Positions 41 to 42,720 are shown, numbered from the stretch's first letter. The stretch is 57,475 nucleotides of DNA from an uncultured Gammaproteobacteria bacterium (GCA_964500725.1 CAZCNP010000003.1:1-57475); one strand, 5' to 3'. Notes: generated by a model not told the origin, from the sequence alone. Numbers and translations: made by a program.

Positions 41-51
41 AAAGGAGGTGA
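41..51 (+). promoter_or_regulatory. Shine-Dalgarno site for first repeat-protein gene
   Basis: AAAGGAGGTGA ends 8 nt before the ATG at 60, supporting that start over GTG at 48. Confidence 0.7.
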
Positions 52-59: not shown

Positions 60-1358
60 ATGATTAAAAAAATAAGTTCAGCAATTGCGACTCTATCCCT
101 CCTATTTTACTCATTTGCAATACCAGCTTTTGCCCAAACTGTAACTTTAGAAGTTTCCGGCAATGGAGCAGGTTCTGAAAATGAGGTAGAAGTGGAAACC
201 ACAACAGAAACTACGGTAGTCCAAGAGAACAATGCCAACATTGTAAATAATATCGAAGCAGAAGCAAAAACTGGAGACAATGAGGCAGAAGACAATACAG
301 GCGGAGATGTCTCTATTGAGACAGGAGATGCAACAACAGAGGTAACTGTCAGTAATCAAGCAAATACTAACACTGCTGATGTAAGTTGTTCAAACTGCAC
401 AGGCGATATTAGCGCCACAGTCTCAGGCAATGGCTCAAATTCAGAAAATGAAATCGAGGTCGAAAATGAGCAGAATACCGAAGTTTACCAAAACAATACT
501 GCCTATATCACAAATAATATCGAAGCAGAAGCAAAAACTGGAGACAATGAGGCAGAGGACAATACAGGCGGAGATGTCTCTATTACAACAGGCAACGCAG
601 ATACGTCTGTTACAGTCAGCAATCTGGCAAATGCCAATGTGGCGAGTGTAGGCGGAGGAGGAACCCAAGGAGCTTTAAGCGCTTGGATAACCGGCAATGG
701 CTCAGATTCAGAAAATGAAATCGAGCTGGATTTGGATAGATCTGTGCTTCTTGTCCAGGAAAATAGGGCTGATATCAGAAACTATATCGAAGCAGAAGCA
801 GAAACTGGAGACAATGAGGCAGAAGACAATACAGGCGGAGATGTCAGTATTGATACAGGCGATGCTACTACTACAGTTGATGTTAACAATGAGGCTAACT
901 TTAACTGGGCAGATGTTGAGTGTTGTTTATTCGATATCTTAGCCAAGATTTCCGGCAACGGTTCTGATTCAGAAAATGAAATCGAGGCAGAAATCGAAAA
1001 CACCTTAGAGCTCTTCCAGGAGAATTGTGGCAAAGATCATGTCGAATCGTTGTTTAACAGCAATAACCGCCATAACTGCGGGATTGAAAACGATATCGAG
1101 GCAGAAGCAGAAACTGGAGACAATGATCCTGATGGCAATACAGGCCCAGCGGTACTTGATCCAGTTGAAGTTACAACTGGCAATGCCGAATCAACAGTGG
1201 AAGTTAACAACTCTACTGGTGCTAACATCTTCAGCCAAGGAAATGCAACTTTGCAAGACGGACTAAATAGCCTATTTGAAGGTTTAAATCTTGATTTTAA
1301 TTTCAGTTTTAACCTTGAGGCTCTTTTAGCACTGCTGCAAAGCCAACTGGCTGGTTAA
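60..1358 (+). CDS. secreted acidic repeat protein (GNG..S.N / TGDN...NTGGDVSI.TG.A repeats), putative fibre or surface subunit
   Basis: Signal peptide ending AFA-Q; four ~75-80 aa repeats; Cys pairs (CSNC, ECC); no C-terminal TM. Confidence 0.75.
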   Translation: MIKKISSAIATLSLLFYSFAIPAFAQTVTLEVSGNGAGSENEVEVETTTETTVVQENNANIVNNIEAEAKTGDNEAEDNTGGDVSIETGDATTEVTVSNQANTNTADVSCSNCTGDISATVSGNGSNSENEIEVENEQNTEVYQNNTAYITNNIEAEAKTGDNEAEDNTGGDVSITTGNADTSVTVSNLANANVASVGGGGTQGALSAWITGNGSDSENEIELDLDRSVLLVQENRADIRNYIEAEAETGDNEAEDNTGGDVSIDTGDATTTVDVNNEANFNWADVECCLFDILAKISGNGSDSENEIEAEIENTLELFQENCGKDHVESLFNSNNRHNCGIENDIEAEAETGDNDPDGNTGPAVLDPVEVTTGNAESTVEVNNSTGANIFSQGNATLQDGLNSLFEGLNLDFNFSFNLEALLALLQSQLAG

Positions 1359-1372
1359 AAGAAATTTTGGAT

Positions 1373-1413
1373 TGTAGGGTGTTTTAGTTTGCACTTCGAC
1401 AAAACACCCTGCA
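1373..1413 (+). terminator. intergenic hairpin (terminator or mRNA-stabilising)
   Basis: TGTAGGGTGTTTT pairs with AAAACACCCTGCA. Confidence 0.6.
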
Positions 1414-1439
1414 CCAAAGAAAGGAAATTAGATTAAAAA

Positions 1440-3611
1440 ATGATAAAGACTGTCAGAAAAATAATAGCTATCTTAACAATTAGTGTATTGTTACTTTCTC
1501 AAACAATAAGCATATCAGCTTTTGAGGCTCCCACCCCGCCTCCAGAACCTACTGCTCCAACCTTGGAAGAAACCCAAAGTTCGCCCCCGCCCGCACCAGA
1601 GGCGCCAACAGCCCCCTCGTCCTCAGACACCATTGATCCTGCTCCTACTGCTGCACCAGAACCTGCTGAGACTGAGGAAACCAACCAGGAGGAAAAACAA
1701 CAAACAGAGTCTATACAACCCCAAGATAGCCAAACTGGACAAGTAGATTCTAATGGCAATGTAGGCGATACCACCATCCAAACCGGCGATGGCTTGACAA
1801 CAGGCTTTCTCACCAACGAAGTAAATAATAATGCAGCAACACAAGAACAAGATCCAAGCCCTTTAAGTGACAGTAGCGCAGAAAATACTAACAATGGTTC
1901 GGATTCAACCAACTCAGCCTCATCTGAAACTACCTCCAGCACCACCCTTATCCAGGATAACGTTGCTACTGTTGGAAATAATATGGAATTAACTACAACT
2001 ACCGGCGAATCCTCTGCCTCTCAAAACGTAGGCAACTCAACCATCACCACCGGTGATGCCAACGTTAGCGGCACACTTTTAACTATGGCCAACTCTAATG
2101 TGGCAGGGCTAGCTGTTTCCGAATTTAATATTGTTGACGATATTGAAGGAGATTACATCTTAGACTTTGCAGAAGGATGTATTTTAGGATGCGACGTCTT
2201 TGATTCTGCTTATGTTACAAATACCGGCAACGGCGAAGATTCTACTAATGATGCTGCAGTAAGTCAAAATATAGATAATCAAACTTTCCAAAACAACGAA
2301 GCAATTTTAGAAAATAACTTGGATTTTACAGCCAACTCAGGAGACAACCAGACTGATCAAAATACAGGCGGAGATTCTACCATCACTACAGGAGATGCAA
2401 ATATCTCAGCCAGCGTTGTCAACTTTTTAAACAGCAATCTTGCAGGCAACATTCTTTTAGGTGTGGTAAATATCTTTGGTGATTTAATTGGCGATATTAT
2501 CTTGCCTGAGGAGATATTAAACGCGCCTCTTACCAGCGCGACCAATACTGCCAATGGCTCAGACTCGACCAACACTGCACTTGTTGACAACACAATTGAT
2601 AATACCACCTTTCAAACTAATGATGCCTTAATACAAAACAACTTAGATTTTACAGCAAATACCGGAGACAACCAGACGAATAAAAATACCGGCGGCAATT
2701 CCAGCATAGAAACAGGAGAAGCCAATATTGAATCACAAACTCTCAATATTGTAAATTCCAATATAGACGGCGGAAATTGGTGGCTGGTGCTGGTAAACAA
2801 GGCAGGAGAGTGGGTAGGAAAGATTTTGGGAACAGAAGATGGGTCAAACATAGCCGGCTCCCAAGGAACAGAGTTTTCAGTAGATCCTAATGGAGATATT
2901 ACAGTAACTAATCAGGGAAATGGAACAGAGTCTACAAATACTACCTCTGCAACCTCCAGCAGCACAACTACTACTGTTCAAGATAATATTGCCCGAATTA
3001 TCAACAATATAAATTTGTTTGCAAATACAGGAGGAAATAGCGCCTCGCAAAATACAGGCGGAGATTCTACCATCACTACAGGCGATGCTAATATTGTAGC
3101 CAGTCTAGTAAATTTTATAAACAATAATATAGTAGGAAATGGTCGGCTAACAATTACTATAGTTAATGTATTTGGCAGCTGGATTGGCGATTTTGTTACA
3201 CCAGGCAATGAAAAAGAAAAAGACCAAATAGTTGAAAGTCTACAAAATACTGATAGCCCTCCGAATTCAACTGATAATACAAACCAGGAATATTCTCCTG
3301 TGCCTGTAATAACGCAAAATACAAACTTAAGCTCAGAAAACTCTTCAAGCTCAGTGGAAGGCAAACAGAACTCTTCTGCAAACCTATTACCATCCCCTAC
3401 CCTTGTTCCTCTATCACAAAACTCCTATCAAGGAACAGCACAAGTGGCTGGCTTAAAGATTACAGCAAATAACCCAGCAACCCCTTCAAACAGTACGCAG
3501 GATAACCAACTGAAAAATATCAAGAAAAAGATTAACATCAATCTTGCTTGGTTGCTAACCTTAGCCCCCTTTGCCGGAATATCTTTCCTGATAAAAAAGA
3601 GGCTAAAATGA
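1440..3611 (+). CDS. secreted repeat protein paralog with Pro-rich N-terminus and C-terminal membrane anchor
   Basis: Signal peptide; same TGDN..NTGG..I.TG.A repeats; ends in LAWLLTLAPFAGISFLI plus KKRLK. Confidence 0.75.
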   Translation: MIKTVRKIIAILTISVLLLSQTISISAFEAPTPPPEPTAPTLEETQSSPPPAPEAPTAPSSSDTIDPAPTAAPEPAETEETNQEEKQQTESIQPQDSQTGQVDSNGNVGDTTIQTGDGLTTGFLTNEVNNNAATQEQDPSPLSDSSAENTNNGSDSTNSASSETTSSTTLIQDNVATVGNNMELTTTTGESSASQNVGNSTITTGDANVSGTLLTMANSNVAGLAVSEFNIVDDIEGDYILDFAEGCILGCDVFDSAYVTNTGNGEDSTNDAAVSQNIDNQTFQNNEAILENNLDFTANSGDNQTDQNTGGDSTITTGDANISASVVNFLNSNLAGNILLGVVNIFGDLIGDIILPEEILNAPLTSATNTANGSDSTNTALVDNTIDNTTFQTNDALIQNNLDFTANTGDNQTNKNTGGNSSIETGEANIESQTLNIVNSNIDGGNWWLVLVNKAGEWVGKILGTEDGSNIAGSQGTEFSVDPNGDITVTNQGNGTESTNTTSATSSSTTTTVQDNIARIINNINLFANTGGNSASQNTGGDSTITTGDANIVASLVNFINNNIVGNGRLTITIVNVFGSWIGDFVTPGNEKEKDQIVESLQNTDSPPNSTDNTNQEYSPVPVITQNTNLSSENSSSSVEGKQNSSANLLPSPTLVPLSQNSYQGTAQVAGLKITANNPATPSNSTQDNQLKNIKKKININLAWLLTLAPFAGISFLIKKRLK

Positions 3612-4807
3612 TTAGCACAGTTAAAACATTTACAGCAGGGCTATTTATTTTACTGTTTACCCTTACTTTAGGGCTTAAACCAGTATGGGCAGAAGAGCTA
3701 ATAATTTCAGGCAATGGGGAAAATTCTCAAAATGCAGTTTCAGTTACCACCAACACCGATACCACCATTGAACAATCAAATAATACCCAAATTACCAATG
3801 ACGTTAACCTAAGCGCAGATACAGGCAGCAATCAAACCTCAGACAACAGCGGCGGCGCAACAATCACTACCGGAGATGCAACTGAACAATCAACCATAGA
3901 AAATAGCGCCAGCAGCTCCCAGGTTACTTCTGAATGCTGTTTGTCTCCTACTCCCCAGGCTATCATCTCTGCTAATGGGTCTGACTCCACCAACTCTATT
4001 ACGGCCAATCAGACAAACCAGACAGAAGTTACAGTCAGTCAAACCGCCAATATTAACAATACCACAGACGGACAAGCCAATACTGGAGGCAATGAGGCAA
4101 GCAGCAACGGAGGCAACGTTTCTATTAATACTGGCAATATCAATGCAGAAGAAAATATTCAAAACTCTAGCATCAACTCAACTGATATTACTATACCTCA
4201 AGGCGGAAGGAACAACTGGTCTGCAAGTATTTCCGACAATGGATCTGACTCCACCAACTCTATTAATCTTGATCTGATAAACCAAAACAGTATTACCATC
4301 AATAACGAAGCAAATATTGAAAACAACAGCCACTGGAATTTAAATACCGGAGGAAATTTTGCAAATGGAAATTTGGGCGATGTTGCAATTACTACAGGAG
4401 ATATTGATTTTAGTTCCGCTATAGAAAACGCGTTCATTAACATTAGCGAGGTTGCTTTGATTTGCTGCGCTGCTCCCTCCCCATCCCCTTCACCCTCCTC
4501 CAGCCCTTCCCCTTCGCCTAGCCCCAATCCCTCTGGTGGAGAAAATAACGAAGAAGATCCACCAGAAATAACTAGTAGCATATCCGGTGGAGGTAGTGCT
4601 GGGGCAAGTGGAGAACCATCTGAGGACGCCGCTATAACTGGAGCAGTCTTAGGAGCATCTGCCCTAGGAGAAGTCCTGGCTGCAGCTGGTAATGCATGGT
4701 TGCTGCTTTTAACAATCTTAGCGCTGTTAAGTCTAGTGGTCGGATTATACTTTCGTTTTGGCCCCTTACCTAAAATCCAAATTAAACGTTTAAAATTCGC
4801 TTTGTGA
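3608..4807 (+). CDS. secreted repeat protein paralog with putative sortase sorting signal
   Basis: ATG overlaps upstream TGA (ATGA); signal peptide; repeats; (PS)n linker; VLG then LAAAG, a hydrophobic helix and a basic tail. Confidence 0.75.
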   Translation: MISTVKTFTAGLFILLFTLTLGLKPVWAEELIISGNGENSQNAVSVTTNTDTTIEQSNNTQITNDVNLSADTGSNQTSDNSGGATITTGDATEQSTIENSASSSQVTSECCLSPTPQAIISANGSDSTNSITANQTNQTEVTVSQTANINNTTDGQANTGGNEASSNGGNVSINTGNINAEENIQNSSINSTDITIPQGGRNNWSASISDNGSDSTNSINLDLINQNSITINNEANIENNSHWNLNTGGNFANGNLGDVAITTGDIDFSSAIENAFINISEVALICCAAPSPSPSPSSSPSPSPSPNPSGGENNEEDPPEITSSISGGGSAGASGEPSEDAAITGAVLGASALGEVLAAAGNAWLLLLTILALLSLVVGLYFRFGPLPKIQIKRLKFAL

Positions 4808-5334
4808 GAAACCGAAAGACTCGCCACCTGTTAGGCAACATCTTAATTTTGGCTTCAGTTTTCATACTGCTTTTTACTTACTACCCTTTTATTAAACTTT
4901 ATTTTTCCTCTTCTATGGTCTCTTCCCAAAACACCGGGTATTTCATAGCCATTCCCAAAATAAACGCCTACGCCCCCATCATCCCCAACATTAACCCTTG
5001 GCAAAAAAGTGATTACCTAAAAGCTTTATCGCAAGGAGTAGCAGCAACCCAAGGCAATCCTTGGTTCCTATTTGCCCACTCATCTGACCTGCCTTGGAAA
5101 ATAACCCGCTATAATACTGCCTTTTTAAGGCTAGGTGAGCTTCAAAAAGGAGACCAAATTATTATTAATAAATACGGCACTAGATACCAATACGAAGTTG
5201 TGGAAAAAAGAGAAGTCTGGCCTGATCAAGTCCAGCACATCAAAGAAGCTGGACCGAATCGCTTAATACTAATGACTTGTACCCCGATTGGCACCTCCTT
5301 GAAAAGATTACTAATTTTTGCCCGCCCACTTTAA
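4804..5334 (+). CDS. sortase
   Basis: N-terminal TM; FAHSS His, LMTCTP Cys and downstream KR Arg form the sortase triad; GTGA overlap with upstream gene. Confidence 0.88.
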   Translation: MRNRKTRHLLGNILILASVFILLFTYYPFIKLYFSSSMVSSQNTGYFIAIPKINAYAPIIPNINPWQKSDYLKALSQGVAATQGNPWFLFAHSSDLPWKITRYNTAFLRLGELQKGDQIIINKYGTRYQYEVVEKREVWPDQVQHIKEAGPNRLILMTCTPIGTSLKRLLIFARPL

Positions 5335-5367: not shown

Positions 5368-6711
5368 ATGTATAAACGATATCTTATCGTTTTGGTTATT
5401 CTTTTGGGATTATTTTTATTCTGGTCTTATCAGGGAATTGTTAATACAGGCATACATGTTGATTTGGCAAGAGATTTAAACTTCCTATCTGATATCTGGA
5501 TCCATAAGATTGTATGGCTTGGTCCGATGACCAGCGCTAATTTTCCTGCCAGCCCAATCTATTATTATTTGCTTTTCCCAGGACTATTGCTAAGCGGAGG
5601 AAACGCGCTATCTTTGATTGTTTCCCAAGCTTTCTTTGCCCTTTTAGGACTTGGATTATTCGCCTACTTCCAAATTAAAAGGTCTTTAATTTCTGCATTA
5701 CTGGTCATACTGGCAATTGGTCTTTCTCCCTGGTGGATTAAGGCCTCGTCTGCTCCTTGGAATGGATATATGTATGTATCCTGGATATTTTTGGGATTAA
5801 CTAGCCTGTGGTTTAAAGGCCCAATTTTTGTATCAGCTTTATTGTTTGGGATAGCCATAGCTATTAACCCCGTGGCAATTTTAGGGCTACCTGTATTATT
5901 TTATGAATGGATTGCAAATACACAAAAAGTAAGGAAGTTATTCTATATTCTGCTGGGATTATTGCTACCCTGGACCCCAATCATTATTTTTGAAGTTATT
6001 ACCAAAGCTTTTTTAACACGCCAATGGTTAGAACATCCCTCTACAGCAGGGATTGTTTTTGATCCAAACTTATCAAATATCAGCCCCTTACTAAACAGCT
6101 TCAATCTGTCTTCGATTGTGGCAATTATTATTCTATTCACATCTTTTTTTATAGGCAGCAAAAGAGCAAAGTTTTGGATTATATTTGCTAGTCTTCCGAT
6201 TATATTTGTTTTCTCTGTTACCCCCCTTAGACAATATTATCTATTCGGTCTTATGAGCGCCCTAACTTTCACTATTGTAACTACACTATCATCACATATG
6301 CTTGGTAAAATTATCCTTACTCTTTTCATCCTTTCATACCTGCAAGTAATTACACTGCCTCCTCTGGTCTTGGCTGGACGCTCAATAATCAGAATGGATA
6401 ATATGGTAAGCACCTTTATACAAAAGAGCAACTTAGATAAAACCAAAAAATATGCTGTTGTTTCCCTTAGGGATTTACAGAATTCTACCCCACAAGCAGA
6501 TGATTTCAGATTCTTTTTAAGAATAAAGGGGGTTAATGCTTTAAGTATTGATGACTACCCAAAAGCTGATATTTTACTGCTTTTTATTGAAGTTCCCAAC
6601 TTTAAATGGCAAAATTGGGATGACTGGCATATACAAAGATTTGGCAGCAGGAAATTCATCTCCAATCAAAATATTGATGGTATAGAGGTAATAATGTATA
6701 GCAGGGATTAA
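5368..6711 (+). CDS. polytopic membrane glycosyltransferase (GT-C/PMT-like)
   Basis: Many TM helices; DLARD and LGP..S...PIYYYLLFP motifs typical of GT-C. Confidence 0.7.
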   Translation: MYKRYLIVLVILLGLFLFWSYQGIVNTGIHVDLARDLNFLSDIWIHKIVWLGPMTSANFPASPIYYYLLFPGLLLSGGNALSLIVSQAFFALLGLGLFAYFQIKRSLISALLVILAIGLSPWWIKASSAPWNGYMYVSWIFLGLTSLWFKGPIFVSALLFGIAIAINPVAILGLPVLFYEWIANTQKVRKLFYILLGLLLPWTPIIIFEVITKAFLTRQWLEHPSTAGIVFDPNLSNISPLLNSFNLSSIVAIIILFTSFFIGSKRAKFWIIFASLPIIFVFSVTPLRQYYLFGLMSALTFTIVTTLSSHMLGKIILTLFILSYLQVITLPPLVLAGRSIIRMDNMVSTFIQKSNLDKTKKYAVVSLRDLQNSTPQADDFRFFLRIKGVNALSIDDYPKADILLLFIEVPNFKWQNWDDWHIQRFGSRKFISNQNIDGIEVIMYSRD

Positions 6712-7916
6712 GGAGAAACTGCATTGGCAGCATTGACACGCCCAGCAGACCAATAAGTTCCAGTTCCAGGTATTTTATCGGCTGTTGTTTGTAGTCGTGT
6801 CCTAACTTGAGAAGCCGAGGTTCCGTATGGTGTTGACCAAATAAGAGCTGCCACAGCTGAAGTCATTGGAGTGGCCATCGAGGTTCCTGAACCAAAATCA
6901 TAACCTAAGGATTTATTTATTTTATAAGAGTGGTTAGGAAAAGTGGAAAAGATATTTTCCCCAGGAGCTGCTACATCAACCCATTTGGCGCCATAGCTTG
7001 AAAATGCTGCTTTTTGATCTTTGTTATTAGTAGCAGCCACAGCAATTGCATTGGTATAAGCAGCCGGATAAGTCTTTGATCGGTTAGCTGAATTACCAGC
7101 AGCAGCTACAACTACGACATTTCTATCCCAAGCATAATTTACCGCCCTTTCCAAAGTTGTAGATCTTACTGATCCTCCAAGGCTCATATTGATTACTTTG
7201 GCTCCATTGTCTGTTGCCCAAGTAATACCATTTGCTATCCAGGAGTAGGCCCCTGAACCGCTGTCATTTAACACCTTCCCGTTCATTAACTGACAATCAG
7301 GACAACCACCTGCAACACCTATGTTGTTATCAGTAACAGCTGCAACTATCCCTCCAACATGAGTTCCATGTCCATATAAATCATCAATCGTAGAAGAATC
7401 AGTAAAATTTCTTTGCGTGGTGATCTTTGAAGATAAATCTTCATGGTCTTGATCGATACCAGTATCTAAAATAGCCACTTTTACTCCACCGGCAGTTATA
7501 TCCCAGCCAGCAGGTCCATCAATATCTGCATCAACTACTCCAGCAACACCGGCAATAGTTTGTCCTGTATTTTCCAATCCCCATTGACTGCTGGCAAAGT
7601 ATGTATCATTCGGGGCAAGAAATACTTCAGCTAAATAATCTAATTCTGCATACTCTACATTAGGGTTTTTTGATAAAGCAGTAACTGCTTTTTCTTCTGC
7701 GGCTTGGGGAACCCGCAATACCAAAACTCCCAGAGCATCTAATTTATTAACTATCTGCCCACGGTTGTTTTTTAATTGATTATCTATTTCTTTCTGCGAA
7801 ACTCCCTCCTTAAACTTTACAAGAACTTGACCAGGAACATGGTCATTATTTTGAGCTTTTGCAACAGGATTGAAATTAAATATTCCTATGAGTAAAAATA
7901 TGAGTATCTTTTTCAC
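6708..7916 (-). CDS. secreted subtilisin/thermitase-like S8 serine protease
   Basis: VAILDTGI (Asp), HGTHVGG (His), GTSMATP (Ser); I9-like prodomain. Confidence 0.95.
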   Translation of the reverse strand: MKKILIFLLIGIFNFNPVAKAQNNDHVPGQVLVKFKEGVSQKEIDNQLKNNRGQIVNKLDALGVLVLRVPQAAEEKAVTALSKNPNVEYAELDYLAEVFLAPNDTYFASSQWGLENTGQTIAGVAGVVDADIDGPAGWDITAGGVKVAILDTGIDQDHEDLSSKITTQRNFTDSSTIDDLYGHGTHVGGIVAAVTDNNIGVAGGCPDCQLMNGKVLNDSGSGAYSWIANGITWATDNGAKVINMSLGGSVRSTTLERAVNYAWDRNVVVVAAAGNSANRSKTYPAAYTNAIAVAATNNKDQKAAFSSYGAKWVDVAAPGENIFSTFPNHSYKINKSLGYDFGSGTSMATPMTSAVAALIWSTPYGTSASQVRTRLQTTADKIPGTGTYWSAGRVNAANAVSP

Positions 7917-8922: not shown

Positions 8923-9414
8923 TCATTTAGGCAACTCTCCACATGCGGTATAAACAGCAATTTCTTGATCTGATTTATGAATATTTAAAGCCATTGGGCT
9001 TTGTGCAGATTTGAGTTGATCCAAAGTTGTATCTATCTCAGTTACCGATCTTCCATCTACTACATTATTTAGTGGAAACAGGACTTCACCTACTCCAGGA
9101 CAAGAACCCAGATGAATATGTGCTGGCTGATTATTTAATTCATCAATTCGGTTTACCTCAACTGTCACGGTAACTTTACCATCCTTTTCTTCAAGAACTG
9201 CTTTGCCAGATTGATCAAATTGATCTCTATTTACTGGATTTAGGGTTACTTCCATTTTTTGTGGTTGTGGAGATATTGATGCTACTAGCCCTGGGCCACC
9301 CCCTACACCAGTTTGTCCAGGTTGAGTTGTTTGTTGATTATTTGCAAGAAGTAAAAAACCACCTATTACTACTACCGCAGCTACCACTACCCAAATAATA
9401 TAGCTATCTCTCAT
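8923..9414 (-). CDS. membrane-anchored CHRD-like/His-rich domain protein
   Basis: N-terminal TM; [10 protein letters not shown] and ALNIHKS motifs; terminal ACG. Confidence 0.6.
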
Positions 9415-32968: not shown

Positions 32969-34507
32969 ATGAAGAATTGTTATATCTATTTAAGAGTAAG
33001 TACAGACGAGCAAGCCAACGAAGGTTTCTCTTTAGATAACCAGAAACGCTCCTGTTCAGACTACGCCCAAATGTGTGGGTACCATATTAAGAGGGTATTT
33101 GAGGATGGCGGTAAAAGCGGTAGAACAACAGATAGACCAGCTTTTCAAGAGTTGTTAACCCTACTCCAAGAAAGCCCAGTAGATGCAGTTATTATTTATA
33201 AAATTGATAGATTTGCCAGAAATGTTGGGGATTTCTCCGGAATAAGGAAACAGTTTAAAAACATGGGCGTTAAGCTCCTCTCTGTATCCGAAAATGGTGA
33301 TGTGACCGAGGGTTTAATAGGAAATATCTTTGCTTCTGTTGCGGAGTGGGAGTCAGAGGTAAATGGACAAAGGACTAAGGATGCTTTAATGCAGAAATTT
33401 AGGGAAGGTTGGCAGCCAACCCCTCCTCCACTTGGCTATATAAGCATTGGCGGAGATCGAGAGAGAAAAACTTGTGAACCGGATCCATATGTAGCATCTA
33501 TTGTCAAGGAAATGTTCGAGATTTATGCTACAGGGAATTATTCAATCCTAGAACTCCAAGAATGGCTCAGTAATAAAAATTTGGTTTCTAAATCAGGGAC
33601 AGGACTCGGACATAGCGTAATCTGCAATATTCTAAATAACCCTTTCTACTACGGTCTAATACGCTGGAAGGGTGAGTCAAAGATAGGAAAACATATCCCC
33701 ATTATTACTAGGGATTTGTTTGAAACCTGCCAGTATGTTTTAGCAAAGCACAGAAACTTTTTAATGAGACGCAGAGTCCACGATTTCCTTCTTAGAGGGT
33801 TTATCTATTGTGGTGAGTGTGGTCAAAGATATACCGCTGAATGGCATGTAGATGCGGTAAAACTTAAGAAACGAGGCGGAAAGATAGGATATTACCATTG
33901 CAAGAAATTAGGCAGAAACGGCTGTCCTGCCCCGTATGTGGAGCTAGCAGACTTAGAAAACCAAACTATGGAAGAATTTAAAAAAATGCAATTTAGCCAA
34001 GAATTTATAGATGCTGTGGTCCGCAAAACTAAGGAACGCTTAGAAAACACCCGCAAAACCGCAGCTTCTTTAAAACAAGGCATGATAAACCAAAAAACAG
34101 CTTTTGAAGCTAAAAGAAGCAAGCTTGAAGATGCTTTATTAGATGCGACTATAGACCGAGATACATTTAAAAGAAAACACTCAGAAATTCAGGATAAAAT
34201 CCTCAATCTAGAGGCTCAAATACAGGAGATTGATGCTGAGAGCCAGATAGATATTGAGCTTATTGATGAAGTTCTAGCTTTTACTAGGAATATTTATCAA
34301 ACTTACTCTGAAGCCCCAGATTTTCTAAAAAGGCACTACCTCAGGTTCTTTTATGAAAAGATAATTGTAAGAAATAAAGAGATTATAGAAGCAACGCCAA
34401 CTCCGATTTTCGCATCCCTGCTTGCTAATCAGCAGGTTATAATAACAGACTTGAGCTCCTCGACCTGGATTCGAACCAGGAACCTGCCGATTACATTTTA
34501 CCCTTAA
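32969..34507 (+). CDS. large serine recombinase
   Basis: YLRVST catalytic Ser, KIDRFAR, recombinase domain, CGECG zinc ribbon, coiled coil; 3' end runs antisense into tRNA-Asn. Confidence 0.95.
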   Translation: MKNCYIYLRVSTDEQANEGFSLDNQKRSCSDYAQMCGYHIKRVFEDGGKSGRTTDRPAFQELLTLLQESPVDAVIIYKIDRFARNVGDFSGIRKQFKNMGVKLLSVSENGDVTEGLIGNIFASVAEWESEVNGQRTKDALMQKFREGWQPTPPPLGYISIGGDRERKTCEPDPYVASIVKEMFEIYATGNYSILELQEWLSNKNLVSKSGTGLGHSVICNILNNPFYYGLIRWKGESKIGKHIPIITRDLFETCQYVLAKHRNFLMRRRVHDFLLRGFIYCGECGQRYTAEWHVDAVKLKKRGGKIGYYHCKKLGRNGCPAPYVELADLENQTMEEFKKMQFSQEFIDAVVRKTKERLENTRKTAASLKQGMINQKTAFEAKRSKLEDALLDATIDRDTFKRKHSEIQDKILNLEAQIQEIDAESQIDIELIDEVLAFTRNIYQTYSEAPDFLKRHYLRFFYEKIIVRNKEIIEATPTPIFASLLANQQVIITDLSSSTWIRTRNLPITFYP

Positions 34508-34760
34508 TTTACATCAAGGAATGGACTATCTCTTCACCATAAACTTGATTCTGGACAAGCCAGAACGACATATTTTTAGGTGTGGGGCGCTAATTGGTGT
34601 ACTCACCTAGTCTCTGCACCTTCCCCCCGCCTTTGGCAGGGGTCTTGGCTCAGGATTACCTCTAAAAGGGTTTCCTGAATTCACCCCATTCTCATTCTTA
34701 GCTTTTGCCAAGAAGCTGCATTTTCTACAGTCGGACGCTCTACCGTTGAGCTATCGAGGA
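34456..34760 (-). tRNA. tRNA-Asn(GTT) split by a group I intron (exons 34727-34760 and 34456-34493)
   Basis: Joined exons form a 72-nt cloverleaf, TCCTCGA/TCGAGGA acceptor, loop CTGTTAA; CCA not encoded. Confidence 0.9.
34494..34726 (-). ncRNA. group I intron (IC3-like), 233 nt, between anticodon positions 35 and 36
   Basis: Exon-terminal U; terminal G; IGS GCAG pairs CUGU; AATTCAGGAAAC, AATCCTGAGCC, GCAGAGACTAG and AAGAGATAGTCC core. Confidence 0.9.
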
Positions 34761-34763: not shown

Positions 34764-35459
34764 TTAAAGTACGTCAGCTATTTTACCACCCAATAAAGCC
34801 GAAATCCATCCTATTATTTTTCTTTGCTTATCACTATCGCTAAAACGAATCGCAAAAACACCATACTGGTGGATATTCTTTCTAATTTTCTTGCTGTCTT
34901 TTTTATCTTTTGCTATGTAGGTTTTATGAAATTGCTCTTCAGGAATACCAGTAAGCTTTGACCAATATTGTTTGGCAACTATATCATCCAGGCCTTGATG
35001 TATCCAAATTGCTCCTCTTAATTTTGTCATTGGCAAACGGCAAAATTCCTGGAACCATTTACTCATAAACTTAATTAAAATAGGATCCGAATTTACAAAT
35101 CCACCCTTTCCGTCATTTTTAAAACCTTCTCCCGAGTAAAGAGCTACCCCAGCTATGAAGCGATCTCTTTTTGATAATTTACCTAACTCTTTTTTCGCAT
35201 CCTTAAAAATAACCCTTGTTCTTGCTAATCTTGCCCTTCTTTTATTATCAGCTGCTACAATCGAACCCTTTCTTTGCCCAAACATTTTATTCTCCAGAAG
35301 CTGTCTTTTTTGATCTTGTGTGAGCTTGATATCCCGACACCATCTGCTAACAGTATCTTTTGAAACATGAATTTGCTGCATTATTTTACCGTAAGACAAA
35401 CCTTTTTTACGTAGCGATTGAGCTTTAAACTTTTCCTCTAGCTTACCTACATACCCCAT
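34764..35459 (-). CDS. HTH plus LAGLIDADG-like protein, tRNA-adjacent
   Basis: N-terminal HTH (GLSYGKI...VSKDTVSRW); ALYSGEG.K...FVNSDP; stops 3 nt before tRNA-Asn. Confidence 0.6.
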   Translation of the reverse strand: MGYVGKLEEKFKAQSLRKKGLSYGKIMQQIHVSKDTVSRWCRDIKLTQDQKRQLLENKMFGQRKGSIVAADNKRRARLARTRVIFKDAKKELGKLSKRDRFIAGVALYSGEGFKNDGKGGFVNSDPILIKFMSKWFQEFCRLPMTKLRGAIWIHQGLDDIVAKQYWSKLTGIPEEQFHKTYIAKDKKDSKKIRKNIHQYGVFAIRFSDSDKQRKIIGWISALLGGKIADVL

Positions 35460-35636: not shown

Positions 35637-36728
35637 CTATTCTAGATAATCCCGAAGTTTTTTTGCTCTGGTGGGATGTTTTAATTTTCTAATAGCTTTG
35701 GCTTCAATTTGTCTAATTCTTTCTCTAGTAACTCCAAATTCTTTGCCTACTTCTTCTAATGTTCTTTGTTTACCATCTTCTAGACCAAACCTGAGCTGTA
35801 ATACTCTTTTTTCTCTAGGAGAGAGACTATCCAGCACCTCATCTAAATGAATCTTTAAAAGCTCTCTTGTAGCCTGCTCATCTGGCTGCAAGCCTTGGTC
35901 AGCAATAAAATCCCCTAAATGAGAATCTTCCTCATCTCCAACAGGAGTTTCCAAAGAAGTAGGCTCTTGGGAAACTTTAATAATTTCCCTGGCTTTACTT
36001 TCATCAATCCCTAAAGCTTTGGCTACTTCTTCTGGGGCAGGTTCTCTGCCTAGCTCCTGCATTAACCTTCTTTGAGTTCTATTGAATCTATTGATAGTTT
36101 CTACCATATGAACAGGAATTCTAATAGTTCTTGCCTGATCAGCAATTGCCCTGGTGATAGCTTGCCTGATCCACCAAGTGGCATAAGTGGAAAATTTATA
36201 ACCCCTTCTCCAGTCATATTTGTCTACTGCTCTCATCAAACCAATATTCCCCTCTTCAATTAAATCGAGCAAGCTCATTCCTCTTCCTACATACTTTTTG
36301 GCTATAGAGACAACTAAACGCAAGTTAGCGCTAATCAATTTATCTCTAGAGGGTTGATCATTTTTTTCTGCTTTTTTGGCAAGCTCAATTTCATCTTGGG
36401 CTGTTAGAAGTGGGATCTTACCAATATCACGAAGATATTGTCTAACAGGATCTGTAACAGAACCTCCCTCTAAAGTAGTTAAAACCTCTAATTCTTTTTC
36501 CAAATCGGAAGGAGATTTAGTTTCAGCTTCCAGCTCTTCTGCTGTGCTTTCAAATACATCAATACTGGCATCAATTAATTGAATATAAAACTCATCCAAA
36601 GCTGGGATTACTTCTTCTGGTTTAGGGAAAATCTGTAAAATTTCCTCTTGGGTAACAAAGCCTCTGTCTTTACCTAATTTAAGAAGCTTTTTAATATCTA
36701 GTGTTGTTTGTTTTCTTTGTTTAGCCAT
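35637..36728 (-). CDS. rpoD: RNA polymerase sigma factor RpoD
   Basis: [39 protein letters not shown]. Confidence 0.98.
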
Positions 36729-36730
36729 AT

Positions 36731-38506
36731 TTAAAGATTTTTAAGCTTGACTGACAGATCCCTAAAGCGCTTGTTTAAAGACTCTACAACATCCATCTTA
36801 TCAAATTCCTGGGCATTCTTAATCTCCAAGGTTAGTTTTTGCAAAGAAGCTTTAATTAAAGCCTTCTTAAGCTCTGAGACTACCCCCTCCAATTCCTTCT
36901 GCCAGAATTTATTGTCACTTAGTTTACTATCAAGTTCAGTTAAATACAACCTATCTACTTCAACAGTCAATTCTTTAGGCAAACCTTCCACAAATTCATT
37001 AATCTCAAATGCCCTGCTTTTAAAAGAAATTGAGTCCAAATAAATCACTAGCAAAACATATATTTGTCTCCATTTTTCTGCCAAAAATAACGTTTCAGGA
37101 AAGGTGGGCACAAAGTTAAAATCTTTAGGCAAATGCAAAAGTAAGGCAATCAAATACTCCTCCAGCAGCTCTCTTCTGGATTTAGAAGGCACTACATTAT
37201 CTTTGGCGCTGGCTGTTTTTAACACATTGGTATAGCTTTGCAATTTGGTGTTGCGTTCTTTGTCCACCGCACTTCGGATAATCTTTTCATCTGATTTTAA
37301 GTAAGCTGATAGCCTCTGGATATAGCGCTCTCTTACTAAATCATCAGTAATTTTGGCCCAAACAGGGATTAACTCTTCTCCGATTCTTTTCAAATCAGCA
37401 GGATTTTTGGTGTCATATCTTTTAGCTGTTGAAGTAAGGTAATAATCATAAATAGGCACAGACTCTTCTATGGCCTTTTGCCAGAGTGAAGGATTTTCAG
37501 AAACTGCCTCAGCTGCATCTTTACCGCCTGAAAGTTGAACCACTTTAATATTTAACCCAGCTTTATCTGCTATTTCAATACCTCTTCTGCAAGCGCTGTC
37601 CCCTGCCAAATCCATATCAAAGGCCAAGGAGATATTATCTGTGTATTTTGTAATCAAATCAATTTGCCCTTCAGTCAAAGCAGTTCCTTTTGAAGCCACA
37701 ATATTTTTAAAACCTGCCTGGAAAGACATAATCATATCCATCTCTCCTTCTACCAAAATTGCTTCTTTTTTATTCCTGATTTCTCCTTTGGCTAAATTTA
37801 AACCAAAGAGCAAGTTTCCTTTATCAAAAATGGGGGTTTGAGGGGTGTTGATATATTTTGGTTCAGCAGGGTATAACACTCTGCCTGAAAAACCCCTGAG
37901 TTTTCCTTTACCATCAATTAAAGGATAAGTAATTCTGCCTCGGAAACGGTCATAACTGCCAGATTTTGAAGCCACTCCTAAACCTGATTGAATAATTTCT
38001 TGATGGCTAAAACCTCTTTTGAGCAAAAATTTAGTCAAAGATTCCCAGGAATTAGGAGCATAACCAATTCCAAATTCTTCTATTGAGCTTGAAGTTAATC
38101 CCCTATTTTTTAGGTATTCCAAGGCTTTTTTGCCTAAAGAATGAGTGGTTAAAATATAATGGAAAAATTCCTGGGCTTTTAAATTAATTTCAAACAACCT
38201 ACTAGTAAAATCTTTTTTATCAGGAGCCTGTTTTAAAACAATTCCAGCTTTGCTAGCCAACATCTCCAAGGCTTCTTTAAAATCTACCCCTTCTTTTTCA
38301 ATTAAAAAAGTAAAAACATCACCTGATTTAGAACATCCAAAACACTTAAAAATCTGTCTTTCTGGAGAGATTACAAAAGAGGGAGTTTTTTCATTATGAA
38401 AGGGACAATTGGCTTTAAAATTTACACCACTCTTTTTTACTGGGAGATACTCGGAGATCAAATCTACAATATTTATTTTCTCTTTGATAAGTTCAATGTC
38501 GTCCAT
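36731..38506 (-). CDS. dnaG: DNA primase
   Basis: CPFH zinc finger, FKCFGC, YINTPQT, VEGEMD, DMDLAG TOPRIM. Confidence 0.98.
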
Positions 38507-38806: not shown

Positions 38807-38896
38807 TGGCGGTGGGAGAGGGATTCGAACCCTCGGTAGACTTACGCCCACACGATCTTTCCAGGATCGCCGGTTAAACCACTCCCGAATCCCACC
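38807..38896 (-). tRNA. tRNA-Ser(GGA)
   Basis: GGTGGGA acceptor, CTGGAAA loop, long variable arm, GCCA end. Confidence 0.95.
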
Positions 38897-39924
38897 TTCG
38901 TCCTTAATCTATGCGTTTTTTGGTTTAAATAATAATTAAATTTTTTCCAATTTTTTGGATTATGCGATCCAATCAATTTAAAGTATTTTTTAATTTCCTC
39001 AAAACTATAAATATAAATCTGCGTTTCTTTCTTTGCAAAGGAAAATTTTAATCCTAGTGATTTTAACACTTTTGCTACAGATTGAACAATTGGAAGAGAT
39101 TTGTTTGTAAAACACATCCCAAAATTTTTATAAATCAAACCATTCGCTTTATGCTTATGAAAATAACAACCGCCATCCGTGTCCATCAGACCTCGCACAC
39201 AAGCTTTTTGAAATTCCGTTCTCTTCCATATCCATTGGGGAAAATCAATCTGGTGCCTAACTTTATTCCCTCTCACAAAACCCCATTTTTCTAGTTCTTC
39301 AACCAAATTAACCCCAGAAATTGTTAGATCAATTGCATTACAATTATTGCGCTCATGCGAACTTGGCCTGCAATCAAAAACCCTCTCAAACAAGGAAGAA
39401 ACAGCTAAGGAATATTCTTTATCCACTAGACTACTTAAACTAATTCTAAGTTGATTGTTAGAGATTGCTCCATCTCCTAAGATTATTCCAGCTACTTCTG
39501 CAAAATCCACTGAAGGGTTAACGACTTTAAATTTATTGCGAGTATTACACCCTAGTAGTCGATATTTTTCTGGATTTTCTTTTCTTCTGAGTTGAGAGTT
39601 CTTACCACCTTTACTCCTACCTTCAATAGTCCCAGGCGGGCCATAAAGTTCTAGTCTTTTTAGGGCTCCCCTCCTAGCTCCTTTTACTGTATACCAATAA
39701 TCATTTACTATTTGTATATTCGTGGGAGTTTCTAGATTGAAATGCTTGGCTAGAATTGATAAAGCTTTTTCAGAAATATGATACTTTCCTCTTAACCAAT
39801 CCCTCATCGTACGTCCAGATACCTGGCATAACGAGCCTAATTGATTACTGTTTAATTTTGATGATAATTTAACTTCTCTTAGGAAATGTGTTTGCTCTGA
39901 ACCCTGGAAGATAACTCTACCCAT
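38842..39924 (-). CDS. LAGLIDADG homing endonuclease-like protein with N-terminal HTH
   Basis: VAGIILGDG and VRGLMDTDG motifs; 3' end overlaps tRNA-Ser by 55 nt. Confidence 0.88.
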   Translation of the reverse strand: MGRVIFQGSEQTHFLREVKLSSKLNSNQLGSLCQVSGRTMRDWLRGKYHISEKALSILAKHFNLETPTNIQIVNDYWYTVKGARRGALKRLELYGPPGTIEGRSKGGKNSQLRRKENPEKYRLLGCNTRNKFKVVNPSVDFAEVAGIILGDGAISNNQLRISLSSLVDKEYSLAVSSLFERVFDCRPSSHERNNCNAIDLTISGVNLVEELEKWGFVRGNKVRHQIDFPQWIWKRTEFQKACVRGLMDTDGGCYFHKHKANGLIYKNFGMCFTNKSLPIVQSVAKVLKSLGLKFSFAKKETQIYIYSFEEIKKYFKLIGSHNPKNWKKFNYYLNQKTHRLRTKVGFGSGLTGDPGKIVWA

Positions 39925-40044
39925 AATTCTACATTAACCGAATAAAATGCGAAAGTCAAGATCTAATTAAGCAGATCTTTTTGAAAAACGTTCCAACGTG
40001 CCTTGACCCCGATCCCGATATAATCGGGACAGGTTAAATCAGGG

Positions 40045-40082
40045 TTGACAGGAAATAGGTATTACTATAAAATTGGTAATAC
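40045..40082 (+). promoter_or_regulatory. sigma70 promoter and operator of AbrB-VapC pair
   Basis: TTGACA-N17-TAAAAT; GTATTAC-N10-GTAATAC palindrome. Confidence 0.75.
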
Positions 40083-40083
40083 T

Positions 40084-40380
40084 ATGTTACAGATTCAACC
40101 TACTACTGTTACCCGAAAGGGGCAAGTAACTATCCCTGCGCCTGTCAGAAAAGCTTTGGGCCTTAGACCCGGCGATCAGATAGATTTTAGAATCACCGGC
40201 AAAACCAAAGCTGAAATAAAACCTAAAAAAAAGTTTTCCATTATGTCACTTTATGGCTCTTTAAAACCAAAAGTTAAACCTAAACTAACAGGCCAAGAGT
40301 TAATTAAATGGGAGGAACAAGCCTGGCCGAAAGCAGCAGCAGAACATGACAGAAAAATATTGAGATCAGCACAAAAATGA
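40084..40380 (+). CDS. AbrB/MazE-family antitoxin
   Basis: VTRKGQVTIPAPVRKALGLRPGD. Confidence 0.9.
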   Translation: MLQIQPTTVTRKGQVTIPAPVRKALGLRPGDQIDFRITGKTKAEIKPKKKFSIMSLYGSLKPKVKPKLTGQELIKWEEQAWPKAAAEHDRKILRSAQK

Positions 40381-40778
40381 TTTTAATAGATACAAATATT
40401 ATTTTACGTTTTATTTTAAATGATAGCCCTGCTTTATCCTCTAAAGCTCAAAGAATTTTTGAAAAGATAACAAATGGCAAAATCCAAGTTTTTATCAGTT
40501 TATTAACAATTTCTGAAATCATATTTACCTTGGAACGATCCTACAAAATTCCCAAAAATGATATTATCAAAAGTTTATCCAATATGTTTTTAATAACCAA
40601 TTTGAAAGTAGAAAAAAGGGTTCTAATAGAACAAGCACTAAGTATTTATGTAGAGAAAAATATTAGTTTTCCGGATGCCTATCATGTAGTATTTATGAAC
40701 TTTAAACAGATTAAACAAATTTATTCTTTTGATGAGGATTTTGATAAATTTCCTCAAATTAAAAGGCTTAGTGTATAA
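40377..40778 (+). CDS. VapC PIN-domain toxin
   Basis: LIDTNII, SEI, DAYH, SFDEDF. Confidence 0.9.
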   Translation: MILIDTNIILRFILNDSPALSSKAQRIFEKITNGKIQVFISLLTISEIIFTLERSYKIPKNDIIKSLSNMFLITNLKVEKRVLIEQALSIYVEKNISFPDAYHVVFMNFKQIKQIYSFDEDFDKFPQIKRLSV

Positions 40779-40786
40779 TAACCTTA

Positions 40787-41035
40787 ATGTTTAATAATTT
40801 TAAACTTCCAGATTTAGGGGCAGGAATTTTTGTGCTGATTTTATGGGAAGTTTTATGGAAAGGAATTGGACTGTGGAAGTCTGCCAAAAAAGGAGATCTG
40901 GTTTGGTTTATAGCTATCTTTTTAATTAACTTTTTTGGAATTATCCCTATTTTTTACCTTTGGAGAACTAAGCAACTGGAAACTGTAATAGAAGATGCCC
41001 AAAAGCTTGTTAAATCAAAGTTTAAGAAGCAATAA
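40787..41035 (+). CDS. DUF5652-like membrane protein
   Basis: WEVLWKGIGLWKSAK....WF.....N.FGI.P. Confidence 0.75.
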   Translation: MFNNFKLPDLGAGIFVLILWEVLWKGIGLWKSAKKGDLVWFIAIFLINFFGIIPIFYLWRTKQLETVIEDAQKLVKSKFKKQ

Positions 41036-41587
41036 ATACTCCTGATTTCCCCCACCCCCTAAAATTGGTGATTCAATACAATTTACAATGTACAATTTAC
41101 AATGTACAATTTTTTCAAGCACTTGATTTTTAACCTGCTCAGCTTTTTCAAGAGGTAGAACTCCTTTAACTAAATCTTTTTTGCTGGCTTCATAATGGGG
41201 CTTGAGCAATGCAATAATTAACCCTTCTGGCTTTAGGAATTTTTTAACAATAGGTAAAATAAGTTCTAATTTAGTCCAACCAGCATCAATGGTTATTAGA
41301 TCCACCTGGGAGGAGTCAAAGCCCACCTCCCAGGTGTTTTTAAACAAAATATTTGTTCTTTCCATTACTACTACTCGAGGATCATTCCGCAGTTTCCAAG
41401 CCAACTCCCCATAGGCTGTATCCAAGGCATATACCTTTTTTGCCCCATTTTGCAGCAGGGAGTCTACAAATCCACCAGTTGAGGAACCTACATCTAAAAC
41501 GACGTAATTTTTAATTTCTAATTTAAAATTTTTAATAGCGGCTTCAAGTTTTTCCCCACCCCTGGAAATAAATTTAACACTTGACAT
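41015..41587 (-). CDS. tlyA: TlyA-family RNA methyltransferase lacking S4 domain
   Basis: FISRGGEKL, LDVGSSTGGF, LLKPHYE, SPILGGGGNQEYL. Confidence 0.8.
   Translation of the reverse strand: MSSVKFISRGGEKLEAAIKNFKLEIKNYVVLDVGSSTGGFVDSLLQNGAKKVYALDTAYGELAWKLRNDPRVVVMERTNILFKNTWEVGFDSSQVDLITIDAGWTKLELILPIVKKFLKPEGLIIALLKPHYEASKKDLVKGVLPLEKAEQVKNQVLEKIVHCKLYIVNCIESPILGGGGNQEYLLLLKL
41077..41111 (+). repeat. heptamer tandem repeat TACAAT(T/G) x5 inside tlyA
   Basis: Encodes IVHCKLYIVNC on minus strand. Confidence 0.8.
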
Positions 41588-41984
41588 ACATTTCTACAGC
41601 TTTTTTTAAAAGCTCCTTATCGCGTGAATAAGACAATTGCTTTAAAGCATCTTCTGGGGCAAACCATCCAATATCACTAACTTCCCAGTCATGATCTGCT
41701 ATGTTGCCAGAAAGATATTTCATTAAAAAATAAGTTACTATCTTAAAGATTTTTTCCCCATTTAAAGAATATATATACTTTGAATAACCAACTTTATCTA
41801 TAATTTCAGCCTCTATTCCTCCCTCTTCTTTTACTTCCCTTAAAGCTGACTGCTCTGTTGTTTGCTCAGGATGATCCAGCAAACCTTTGGGAAAAGACCA
41901 GTGTTTATTTTGAGAGTGTTGGGTAACTAACACTTGGCCTTTGTCGTTAAAAACTATCCCACCTGCGCTAAATTCTCTTTTCAT
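41574..41984 (-). CDS. NUDIX hydrolase
   Basis: FPKG...EQSALREVKEEGG Nudix box. Confidence 0.93.
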   Translation of the reverse strand: MKREFSAGGIVFNDKGQVLVTQHSQNKHWSFPKGLLDHPEQTTEQSALREVKEEGGIEAEIIDKVGYSKYIYSLNGEKIFKIVTYFLMKYLSGNIADHDWEVSDIGWFAPEDALKQLSYSRDKELLKKAVEMYVKC

Positions 41985-42714: not shown

Positions 42715-42720
42715 TCTAAG

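Follow-up and report, generated by a model that had tools for sequence, protein, structure and literature searches.

The Locus and Its Gene Layout

The stretch of DNA analyzed here, in the following called the window, comprises 57,475 nucleotides (GCA_964500725.1, CAZCNP010000003.1:1-57475) and is deposited as an uncultured Gammaproteobacteria bacterium. At positions 60-5334 it holds four co-directional genes on the + strand, designated A, B, C and the sortase gene, which are candidates for a cell-surface assembly. Gene A (60..1358) codes for a secreted, unanchored repeat protein of 432 amino acids. Its ATG at 60 is preceded by a Shine-Dalgarno region (AAAGGAGGTG, 41..50, +) with GGAGG at 44-48, and a gene caller applied to the source contig placed the start of the 432-residue protein at the same ATG. 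Gene B (1440..3611) encodes a membrane-anchored repeat protein of 723 amino acids, gene C (3608..4807) a sortase substrate of 399 amino acids and the fourth gene (4804..5334) a sortase of 176 amino acids. Genes B and C overlap by 4 nt, with the ATG of C lying within the TGA stop of B (ATGA), and a second 4-nt overlap joins C to the sortase gene, whose GTG start lies within the stop of C (GTGA). The source contig ends about 86 nt upstream of the window, so that the upstream neighbours of gene A are outside its reach.

A, B and C alike carry a Sec-type signal peptide. The mature proteins are rich in asparagine, threonine, serine and glycine and have net charges of -74 (A), -74 (B) and -37 (C). 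A preliminary description of this DNA had claimed three neighbouring secreted proteins built from one repeat, with three differing C-termini, the third being translationally coupled to a sortase with a complete catalytic triad. All of this was confirmed. The repeat is present in four copies in A, four in B and three in C; A is unanchored, B ends in a transmembrane (TM) helix followed by KKRLK, and C has LAAAG (amino acids 357-361), a TM helix and a basic tail. The sortase coupled to C by the GTGA overlap contains His92, Cys159 and Arg168.

The sequencing runs in which the locus was found consist of groundwater DNA only, and the host is an uncultured groundwater bacterium of the Microgenomates, probably of the Daviesbacteria. 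Four metagenome-assembled genomes (MAGs) deposited as "uncultured Gammaproteobacteria" or "Pseudomonadales" contain the four-gene cassette (loci L010, L014, L015, and L016 of the set of related loci). Otherwise it was found only in genomes labelled as Patescibacteria, the candidate phyla radiation (CPR), and these MAG labels may be wrong.

The Shared Repeat Family

The repeat has a period of 87-89 amino acids in A and C and of 108-122 amino acids in B, owing to hydrophobic inserts in the latter; the period of about 75 amino acids given in the preliminary description was too short. An alignment of 10 repeat units shows 11 invariant columns and the consensus SGNGsdStN..V......Q.N.A.I.NN....ANTGdN.A..NTGGdv.I.TGDA.......N..N.N. 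When a hidden Markov model (HMM) of the repeat was compared with composition-matched shuffles, 0 of 900 were matched. An HMM built from the repeats of one protein detects nearly all repeats of the other two with 22-59 bits. The exception is the interrupted fourth unit of A, which scores 17 bits with the C-only HMM and is missed by the B-only HMM. Since no shuffled sequence is matched and single-protein HMMs find the repeats of the other proteins, the repeat is not an artefact of composition, and A, B, and C are truly homologous in their repeats.

An exhaustive profile search yielded 3,404 cluster representatives at E<=1e-3, of which 877 remain at E<=1e-30. The source names all read "hypothetical protein", and the organisms given with them are Daviesbacteria, Chisholmbacteria, Levybacteria, Woesebacteria, Gottesmanbacteria and one Parcubacteria group bacterium. 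In Pfam and NCBIfam no family matching the repeats of A, B or C was present, and the repeat profile had no match among the PDB sequences, in line with the earlier remark that the repeat was not recognised as a characterised pilin fold. Three architectures recur throughout the family. A-type proteins (about 400-510 amino acids) end in FDFxFxF...LLxxLGL, B-type proteins (about 700-800 amino acids) have INLAW, a TM helix and a basic tail at their C-terminus, and C-type proteins (about 360-410 amino acids) have three repeats and a sorting signal.

Additional members were observed outside this scheme. A contig with 63% GC (L019, 2-4251) carries an A-like member and a B-like member with eight repeats, and neither a C-type gene nor a sortase lies nearby. 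The family may thus reach beyond the low-GC loci that were examined (32-42% GC in the window). In three loci a fourth small member of about 200 amino acids with two repeats is encoded on the opposite strand directly after the sortase gene (L005 9728-10324, -; L011 8723-9331, -; L016 8775-9380, -); it is absent from the window.

Gene C, Its Sorting Signal and the Sortase

Protein C has the layout of a canonical wall-sorted protein, that is signal peptide, domain, Pro/Ser/Gly-rich spacer, motif, TM helix and basic tail. Its three repeats, given as HMM domains, lie at 3695-3952, 3956-4195, and 4220-4477 (+), and two vicinal cysteine pairs at 3935-3940 and 4463-4468 (+) show 84-95% conservation among 56 orthologues. 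The spacer (4469..4675, +) is of a kind typical for wall-spanning segments, with a predicted local distance difference test (pLDDT) below 50 in AlphaFold. The sorting signal (4676..4804, +) consists of LAAAG (4676-4690), the TM helix (4697-4753; amino acids 364-382) and a tail rich in Lys and Arg (4754-4804). In an alignment of 64 sequences LAAAG occupies the columns which hold LPATG, LPVTG, LPDTG, LPTTG or LPISG in most orthologues, followed there by the same TM helix and often by an LYLRLxSGRxP tail. LPxTG is the common and ancestral motif of the family, and LAAAG is a derived state. Mature C contains 0 Lys residues, and none of the columns in the 56 C orthologues is a conserved Lys. No other protein with a sorting signal was found in the window.

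The sortase matches Pfam Sortase (PF04203) with 63.8 bits against a cutoff of 26.6 (1.7e-17). The generic TIGR01076 (48.2 bits, cutoff 39.35) is the sole NCBIfam model passed, and the curated models of classes C, D, and E all remain far below their cutoffs. The best partial NCBIfam match is the class C model NF033745 (55.3 bits, cutoff 160), and the class E model NF033747 reaches 31 bits (cutoff 160). Among solved sortases the nearest include pilus enzymes of class C, only at E~1e-6. A reading of its NPW/DPW motif as the class C "lid" was discarded, as the motif follows the first strands and is not in the canonical lid position. The protein has a single N-terminal TM helix (amino acids 9-27; 4828-4884, +) and ends 8 residues past Arg168 without a C-terminal anchor. 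The triad consists of His92 (FAH92SS; 5077-5079, +), Cys159 (LM-T-C159; 5278-5280, +) and Arg168 (KR168L; 5305-5307, +), which are conserved across 12 aligned cassette sortases. Met157 (5272-5274, +) represents the x of the TLxTC signature, a position which lines the substrate groove in Staphylococcus aureus SrtA.

Between motif and enzyme a clear pairing was observed. LPxTG occurs with sortases reading L-I-L-Q-T-C (LQTC) in 7/7 cases, L[PA]xAG with LMTC sortases in 6/6 cases (LAAAG three times, LPIAG, LPVAG, and LPEAG), and LGL[SA]xT with a divergent sortase subtype, LTL[YF]TC[SA]G, in 3/3 cases. The Ala at the fourth motif position therefore co-varies with Met157, as the pairings state, and the LMTC group spans 54-83% identity. 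The association of Q/M with T/A has a Fisher p=6e-4, calculated without phylogenetic correction. Sorting motifs of the types L[PA]xAG and LGL[SA]xT are, to our knowledge, undescribed. Compared with the LAAAG relative L018, the sortase of the window shows a ratio of nonsynonymous to synonymous substitution rates (dN/dS) of 0.11 at a dS of 0.9, indicating purifying selection, and the Leu and Gly of LAAAG, the TM helix and the tail are conserved between orthologues of 71-73% identity.

As the motif co-varies with the sortase, there is strong sequence support that the co-translated minimal sortase has C as its cognate target, and LAAAG is probably a functional sorting signal that co-evolved with its enzyme. 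The pairing and the low dN/dS make a decayed signal beside an idle enzyme unlikely. The proposal of LAAAG as a sorting motif thus held, through its alignment with the LPxTG of orthologues and its co-variation with the sortase.

Conservation of the Cassette

Related loci were counted as 16 distinct genomes, not hundreds. Wherever the flanking DNA suffices, the order A-B-C-sortase is found, with an A-type orthologue in first place at all loci covering that position. The sortase gene lies directly 3' of C in 16/16 genomes. The co-occurrence of the repeat family with a sortase holds for these genomes with C and does not extend to the A-like and B-like genes of L019. At one locus two APH (PF01636) genes are inserted between B and C, and the genes 3' of the sortase vary between loci. 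The cassette adjoins housekeeping genes such as TsaE/TsaD, and the labelled loci include Chisholm-, Levy-, Woese-, and Daviesbacteria. By sequence comparison, the window covers the 3' half of a cassette that is conserved among Patescibacteria of the Microgenomates type.

At 8-9 of 9 loci three further conserved genes were observed directly upstream of A (L001 3748-5948, L003 3100-4161, L004 2842-4124, L005 3226-4179, L011 1746-3168, L016 1480-3117, L017 192-2003). Two of them encode single-pass membrane proteins containing Pro/Ser/Thr linkers, the third a small protein of the DUF2292 (YezD-like) type, and the full cassette may comprise about seven genes.

Anatomy of Proteins A and B

The repeat units of A, given as HMM domain coordinates, are located at 144-401, 411-668, 678-935, and 942-1235 (+), the fourth containing a Cys-bearing insert. 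Beyond the signal peptide A has neither a TM helix nor a sorting signal. Its cysteines form a CxxC and a CC, with two more Cys besides; the codons at 387-389, 396-398, and 921-926 (+) are 53-94% conserved in 79 A-type orthologues. In A and C the conservation of the Cys pairs where repeats 1/2 and 3/4 adjoin is 84-95%. Vicinal pairs had been described for each of the three proteins, which applies to A (CC, also CxxC) and C (two CC); B contains a CxxxC instead (C247/C251; codons 2178-2180 and 2190-2192, +), present in about 90% of 48 orthologues. The A-specific C-terminal tail (LNLDFNFSFNLEALLALLQSQLAG, 1284..1355, +) alternates aromatic and acidic residues, continues Leu-rich and recurs in A-type orthologues. 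K300 of A is fairly conserved (76% of orthologues).

Protein B consists of a Pro-rich N-terminal region, the repeats, hydrophobic inserts, a long stalk rich in Ser, Thr, Asn and Pro and a TM anchor. According to the HMM domains, its full repeats are found at 1875-2123, 2211-2468, 2535-2792, and 2901-3158 (+), in addition to a partial repeat at 1725-1838 (+). The protein ends in ...KININLAWLLTLAPFAGISFLIKKRLK. In the C-terminal anchor (3537..3608, +) INLAW (3537-3551) starts a 19-residue TM helix (to 3593), which is followed by KKRLK. The combination of INLAW, TM helix and basic tail was found in about 50 B-type orthologues, which strongly supports, by sequence, that B is held in the membrane by this helix.

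In the B-type orthologues of all loci INLAW is strongly conserved, with a Lys before it and the basic tail after the helix. This end has a sorting-signal-like layout and matched no C-terminal sorting domain of NCBIfam. Furthermore, a hydrophobic insert specific to B was observed after each repeat (about 2124-2210, 2469-2534, 2793-2900, and 3159-3230). The inserts share a motif (VNIFGDLIGDIILP / VNKAGEWVGKILG / VNVFGSWIGDFV), which is kept in the B orthologues P0085 and P0092, and may constitute a sheet of their own or a surface for interaction.

An RNA Hairpin Downstream of Gene A

Between the stop codon of A and the ribosome binding site of B an RNA hairpin of 55 nt is located (1365..1419, +), with 13+3+6 bp and the loop UGCACUUC. 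Its folding energy is -26.1 kcal/mol (z = -3.9), and 0/200 shuffles fold as well. A stable hairpin occupies the same position in 13/13 other loci with an A-B junction (L001, L003-L006, L010, L011, L016-L018, L020-L022), which makes 14/14 with the window; z ranges from -2.7 to -9.9 and the apical loop in most loci is GCACUUCGG. There is no U-tract 3' of the hairpin, and an Rfam scan reported no family at this position. Alignment of the hairpins by MAFFT with RNAalifold gave no structure, the stems being misaligned, and a covariance model with a structure-aware alignment was used instead. The model was seeded on four loci and searched against both strands of 232 kb. Seven loci outside the seed were recovered (E 8e-12 to 0.16), and the sole other match of the model is a weak one at position 12591 of the window (E = 0.39). 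In the alignment, 128/150 pair cells are canonical and 14/20 pairs show compensatory double changes, counts which lean towards the structure because the alignment was fitted to the covariance model.

We infer that the hairpin may act as a 3' stabiliser or attenuator which raises A over the coupled B, C, and sortase. This would be comparable to major-pilin mRNAs in fimbrial operons. The conserved hairpin suggests A as the bulk subunit.

Predicted Structure of the Repeats

AlphaFold modelling of C from its single sequence was uninformative (pLDDT 40). With a multiple alignment of 64 sequences an all-beta model was obtained (pLDDT 70.5, predicted template modeling score (pTM) 0.47), which reaches its highest confidence (>90) in the second half of repeats 2 and 3 and is disordered in the spacer. 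Foldseek found no significant neighbour in the PDB or among viral structures. The weak top neighbours are FapC, CsgA, and beta-helix proteins, with E values from 8e-3 to 4 and TM-scores below 0.2 for FapC and CsgA. The idea of beta-solenoid or amyloid-like repeats is supported in part, by an all-beta model whose only neighbours, functional amyloids and beta-helices, are weak and non-significant. The fold is either new or too elongated to match, and "beta-solenoid/amyloid-like" is a lead from modelling, not a result.

Pfam searches of A, B, and C at E<=1 returned no Curlin_rpt, Fap, chaplin or TasA/camelysin match; Cna_B, FctA or other pilin domains were likewise missing in Pfam, as were SLH, CWB2 or other surface layer (S-layer) domains in Pfam and NCBIfam. 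The TGGD motifs were also considered as calcium-binding repeats of the RTX type, a reading that was dropped, as HemolysinCabind gave no match and Foldseek only matches at E>3.

Proposed Assembly and Alternative Explanations

These features can be combined into an undescribed cell-surface assembly made from three paralogous all-beta repeat proteins with three modes of attachment, resembling chaplins or curli, a proposal which is given about an even chance of being correct. C is exported, and the sortase would cleave within LAAAG and, by analogy with other sortases, join C to the peptidoglycan, which C would reach through its Pro/Ser-rich spacer. B would be tethered in the membrane on its long stalk. 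A would be made in excess over B, C, and the sortase, as can be assumed from the conserved hairpin after its stop codon and the translational coupling of the three genes downstream. Through the shared repeats, unanchored A would associate with anchored B and C, which would serve as base or nucleator, and the cell surface would thereby carry an acidic fibre or layer stabilised by disulfides. In this context, MdbA-like disulfide oxidoreductases have been described as enriched in CPR (PMC6744442). A as major subunit, B as minor subunit and C as base are plausible. The product may be a fibre or a layer, and the filament form and the part in host attachment proposed earlier are conjectural.

The sortase would anchor C and polymerise nothing, since neither A nor B carries a sorting signal and mature C lacks Lys. 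Of the earlier ideas, "sortase-attached" therefore fits, with C as the wall-anchored base, and a sortase-built polymer was not borne out, the sorting signal being on C only and mature C being free of Lys. A covalent pilus of the Spa type, with A as major subunit, B as minor subunit and C as base, is for these reasons very improbable. It would agree with the appearance of class C enzymes among the closest solved sortases (E~1e-6), with class C as best partial NCBIfam match and with the conservation of K300 in 76% of A orthologues. However, A and B cannot act as sortase donors without sorting signals, so that the anatomy largely refutes it. There is furthermore no conserved Lys in the C orthologues and no pilin domain, the class C score is 55 bits against a cutoff of 160, and the only sortase has a single N-terminal TM helix. 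Another possibility is that LAAAG is a dead signal in this genome, in which case C would remain uncleaved, its TM helix tethering it as in B, and the sortase would serve substrates encoded elsewhere in the genome. Most sortases require the Pro and Thr of LPXTG, and some genomes (L001) carry a second sortase, so that other sortase clients exist. Nevertheless this is unlikely, as the change from Thr to Ala is matched by that from Gln to Met in TLxTC in 6/6 lineages with 54-83% sortase identity, Leu and Gly of LAAAG, TM helix and tail are conserved, the 4-nt coupling of C and sortase is kept, and the 57-kb window contains no other protein with a sorting signal.

It is somewhat unlikely that A, B, and C are separate acidic secreted, membrane and wall proteins, for instance cation-binding or adhesive modules, which share the repeat by duplication, with the sortase merely anchoring C. 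Surface proteins that are paralogous, with and without LPXTG, often act independently of each other, the high negative charge would suit cation binding, and L019 encodes A-like and B-like proteins without C or sortase. Strict co-linearity and translational coupling in 16 genomes, complementary anchoring modes, conserved Cys pairs at equivalent repeat boundaries in all three proteins and the conserved hairpin, which sets the expression of A apart, suggest a stoichiometric complex instead. Such a complex could also be a two-dimensional lattice like an S-layer, with A as a paracrystalline acidic coat tethered by B to the membrane and by C to the wall, and would then constitute the surface layer of ultrasmall CPR cells from groundwater. 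A surface layer has reportedly been seen on groundwater ultrasmall cells by cryo-transmission electron microscopy. Further points in favour are the very acidic character of the proteins, the conservation of the cassette as a core block beside housekeeping genes (TsaE/TsaD) and the description of the CPR cell envelope as unresolved (PMC5220378). A lattice is nevertheless distinctly unlikely, given the missing S-layer domains (SLH, CWB2 or others) and the elongated tandem beta repeats with their weak likeness to amyloids and beta-helices, which suit rods or fibres at least equally.

Several points weigh against the chaplin- or curli-like assembly favoured here. The interaction of A, B, and C and the formation of a fibre or layer are conjectured from sequence. 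LAAAG is without both the Pro and the Thr of LPxTG, and cleavage after Ala in a motif of this kind is not known for any sortase. The correlation of Q/M with T/A may go back to one ancestral event. The structure model is moderate (pTM 0.47), with its best neighbour at E 8e-3 and TM<0.2. Further possible roles of the hairpin are those of a terminator, of a processing site or of a regulatory element affecting stoichiometry in another way. Finally, as L019 indicates, the repeat proteins can exist without a sortase.

If the assembly is nevertheless taken further, it might be a lineage-defining fibre or coat of the Microgenomates with A, B, and C as its main structural proteins, a monoderm assembly which is anchored by sortase and membrane, amyloid- or beta-solenoid-like and nucleated on the anchored paralogues, and whose dedicated sortase clade would have evolved new specificities (L[PA]xAG with Met in TLxTC; LGL[SA]xT). 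This extension is tentative and somewhat unlikely. As part of it, the INLAW-TM end of B may represent one more new signal, for sorting or docking.

The sortase family has been reported as near-ubiquitous in Microgenomates, no substrate being named (Meheust et al., PMC6744442), and in full-text searches of the literature no paper connected a CPR sortase with its substrate. The cassette provides a concrete, conserved candidate substrate system for the Microgenomates sortase and testable handles on how ultrasmall, probably episymbiotic cells build their surface. The motif-enzyme pairs (Thr/Gln, Ala/Met, LGLSxT/other) represent a natural map of sortase specificity, which could aid sortase engineering, and the hairpin after A is a candidate regulatory RNA element in CPR.

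Neighbouring Genes and the Wider Window

Downstream of the sortase gene a polytopic membrane protein of 447 amino acids is encoded (5368..6711, +), which had been taken for a GT-C glycosyltransferase and linked to glycosylation of the filament. It has at least 8 hydrophobic segments and a C-terminal soluble domain of about 110 amino acids. An invariant D32/R35/D36, together with this topology, is compatible with GT-C but not specific. Neither the protein nor 20 homologues nor a 20-sequence profile had a match in Pfam, NCBIfam or the PDB. The labelled homologues are Daviesbacteria. No other locus has the gene directly 3' of the sortase; L018, the nearest relative, has it displaced to a position beyond an S8 protease. 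The glycosyltransferase assignment and the link to glycosylation are thus unsupported, there being no homology and no synteny outside close relatives, and the protein is probably outside the conserved system.

Converging on the cassette, a secreted subtilase with Peptidase_S8 and a fervidolysin-like prodomain is encoded at 6708-7916 (-). A subtilase also adjoins the sortase in L018, and processing of the repeat proteins by it is possible. A weak CHRD-domain protein follows at 8923-9414 (-). At 34502-34737 (-) Rfam matches a group I intron (85 bits, E 2.6e-20), which adjoins the 3' end of a gene for a large serine recombinase (32969-34507, +) and an open reading frame with a weak helix-turn-helix (34764-35459, -). 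No tRNA or rRNA host gene was detected for this intron in the window. Additionally, a DnaG-RpoD pair, four tRNA-Ser with one tRNA-Arg, and a tmRNA (35637-38506, -; 38807-44612; 46832-47252) represent an ordinary chromosomal context.

Comparison with Known Surface Systems

The Gram-positive Spa/Fim pili resemble the cassette by a sortase, several subunits in one operon and conserved Cys, but here two of the three proteins have no sorting signal, and pilin-motif Lys, CnaB/Ig (immunoglobulin) domains and class C features are lacking. A CPR-specific surface filament also present in Microgenomatia is the Pam pilus, whose pilins PamA/PamB have signal peptides and paired Cys (bioRxiv 10.64898/2026.03.03.709456). 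These pilins have two Ig-like domains, are assembled through donor-strand exchange together with the chaperone-like PamC/D and are encoded beside ATP synthase genes, and sortases are mentioned in that paper only as background on Gram-positive pili (bioRxiv 10.64898/2026.03.03.709456). Identity with the Pam pilus was rejected on architecture, given the tandem 88-aa repeats and the sortase of the cassette, a distinction made by description and not by sequence. The dedicated sortases of monoderms, each with a single target, share with the cassette the adjacent, coupled sortase gene, the tripartite C-terminal signal and the co-variation, but the cassette sortase is in no curated class and its substrate family is uncharacterised.

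Curli (CsgA/CsgB) and Fap likewise combine an unanchored major subunit with a surface-tethered paralogue made of the same imperfect, Asn/Gln/Gly-rich beta repeats. They have been described in Gram-negative (diderm) bacteria, whereas attachment here is by sortase and TM helix and the repeats are four times longer. The chaplins of Streptomyces (long ChpA-C, short ChpD-H) are, like A, B, and C, paralogous secreted proteins with one beta-forming domain, some of them sortase-anchored, and the anchored paralogues have been proposed as anchoring sites for unanchored, fibre-forming copies (PMC8300730). The LAAAG of the window superficially recalls the LAXTG of chaplins and class E sortases. However, chaplin domains are highly hydrophobic (PMC8300730), whereas the present repeats are acidic and polar, about 88 amino acids long and arranged in tandem 3-5 times; there is no chaplin-domain match, the sortase is not of class E, a third paralogue is TM-anchored and the ancestral motif is LPxTG, not LAXTG. 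Sortase-anchored surface proteins as such are known; new in the present cassette are an uncharacterised, widespread CPR repeat family, a design with three anchoring modes and non-canonical motifs that appear to have co-evolved with their sortases.

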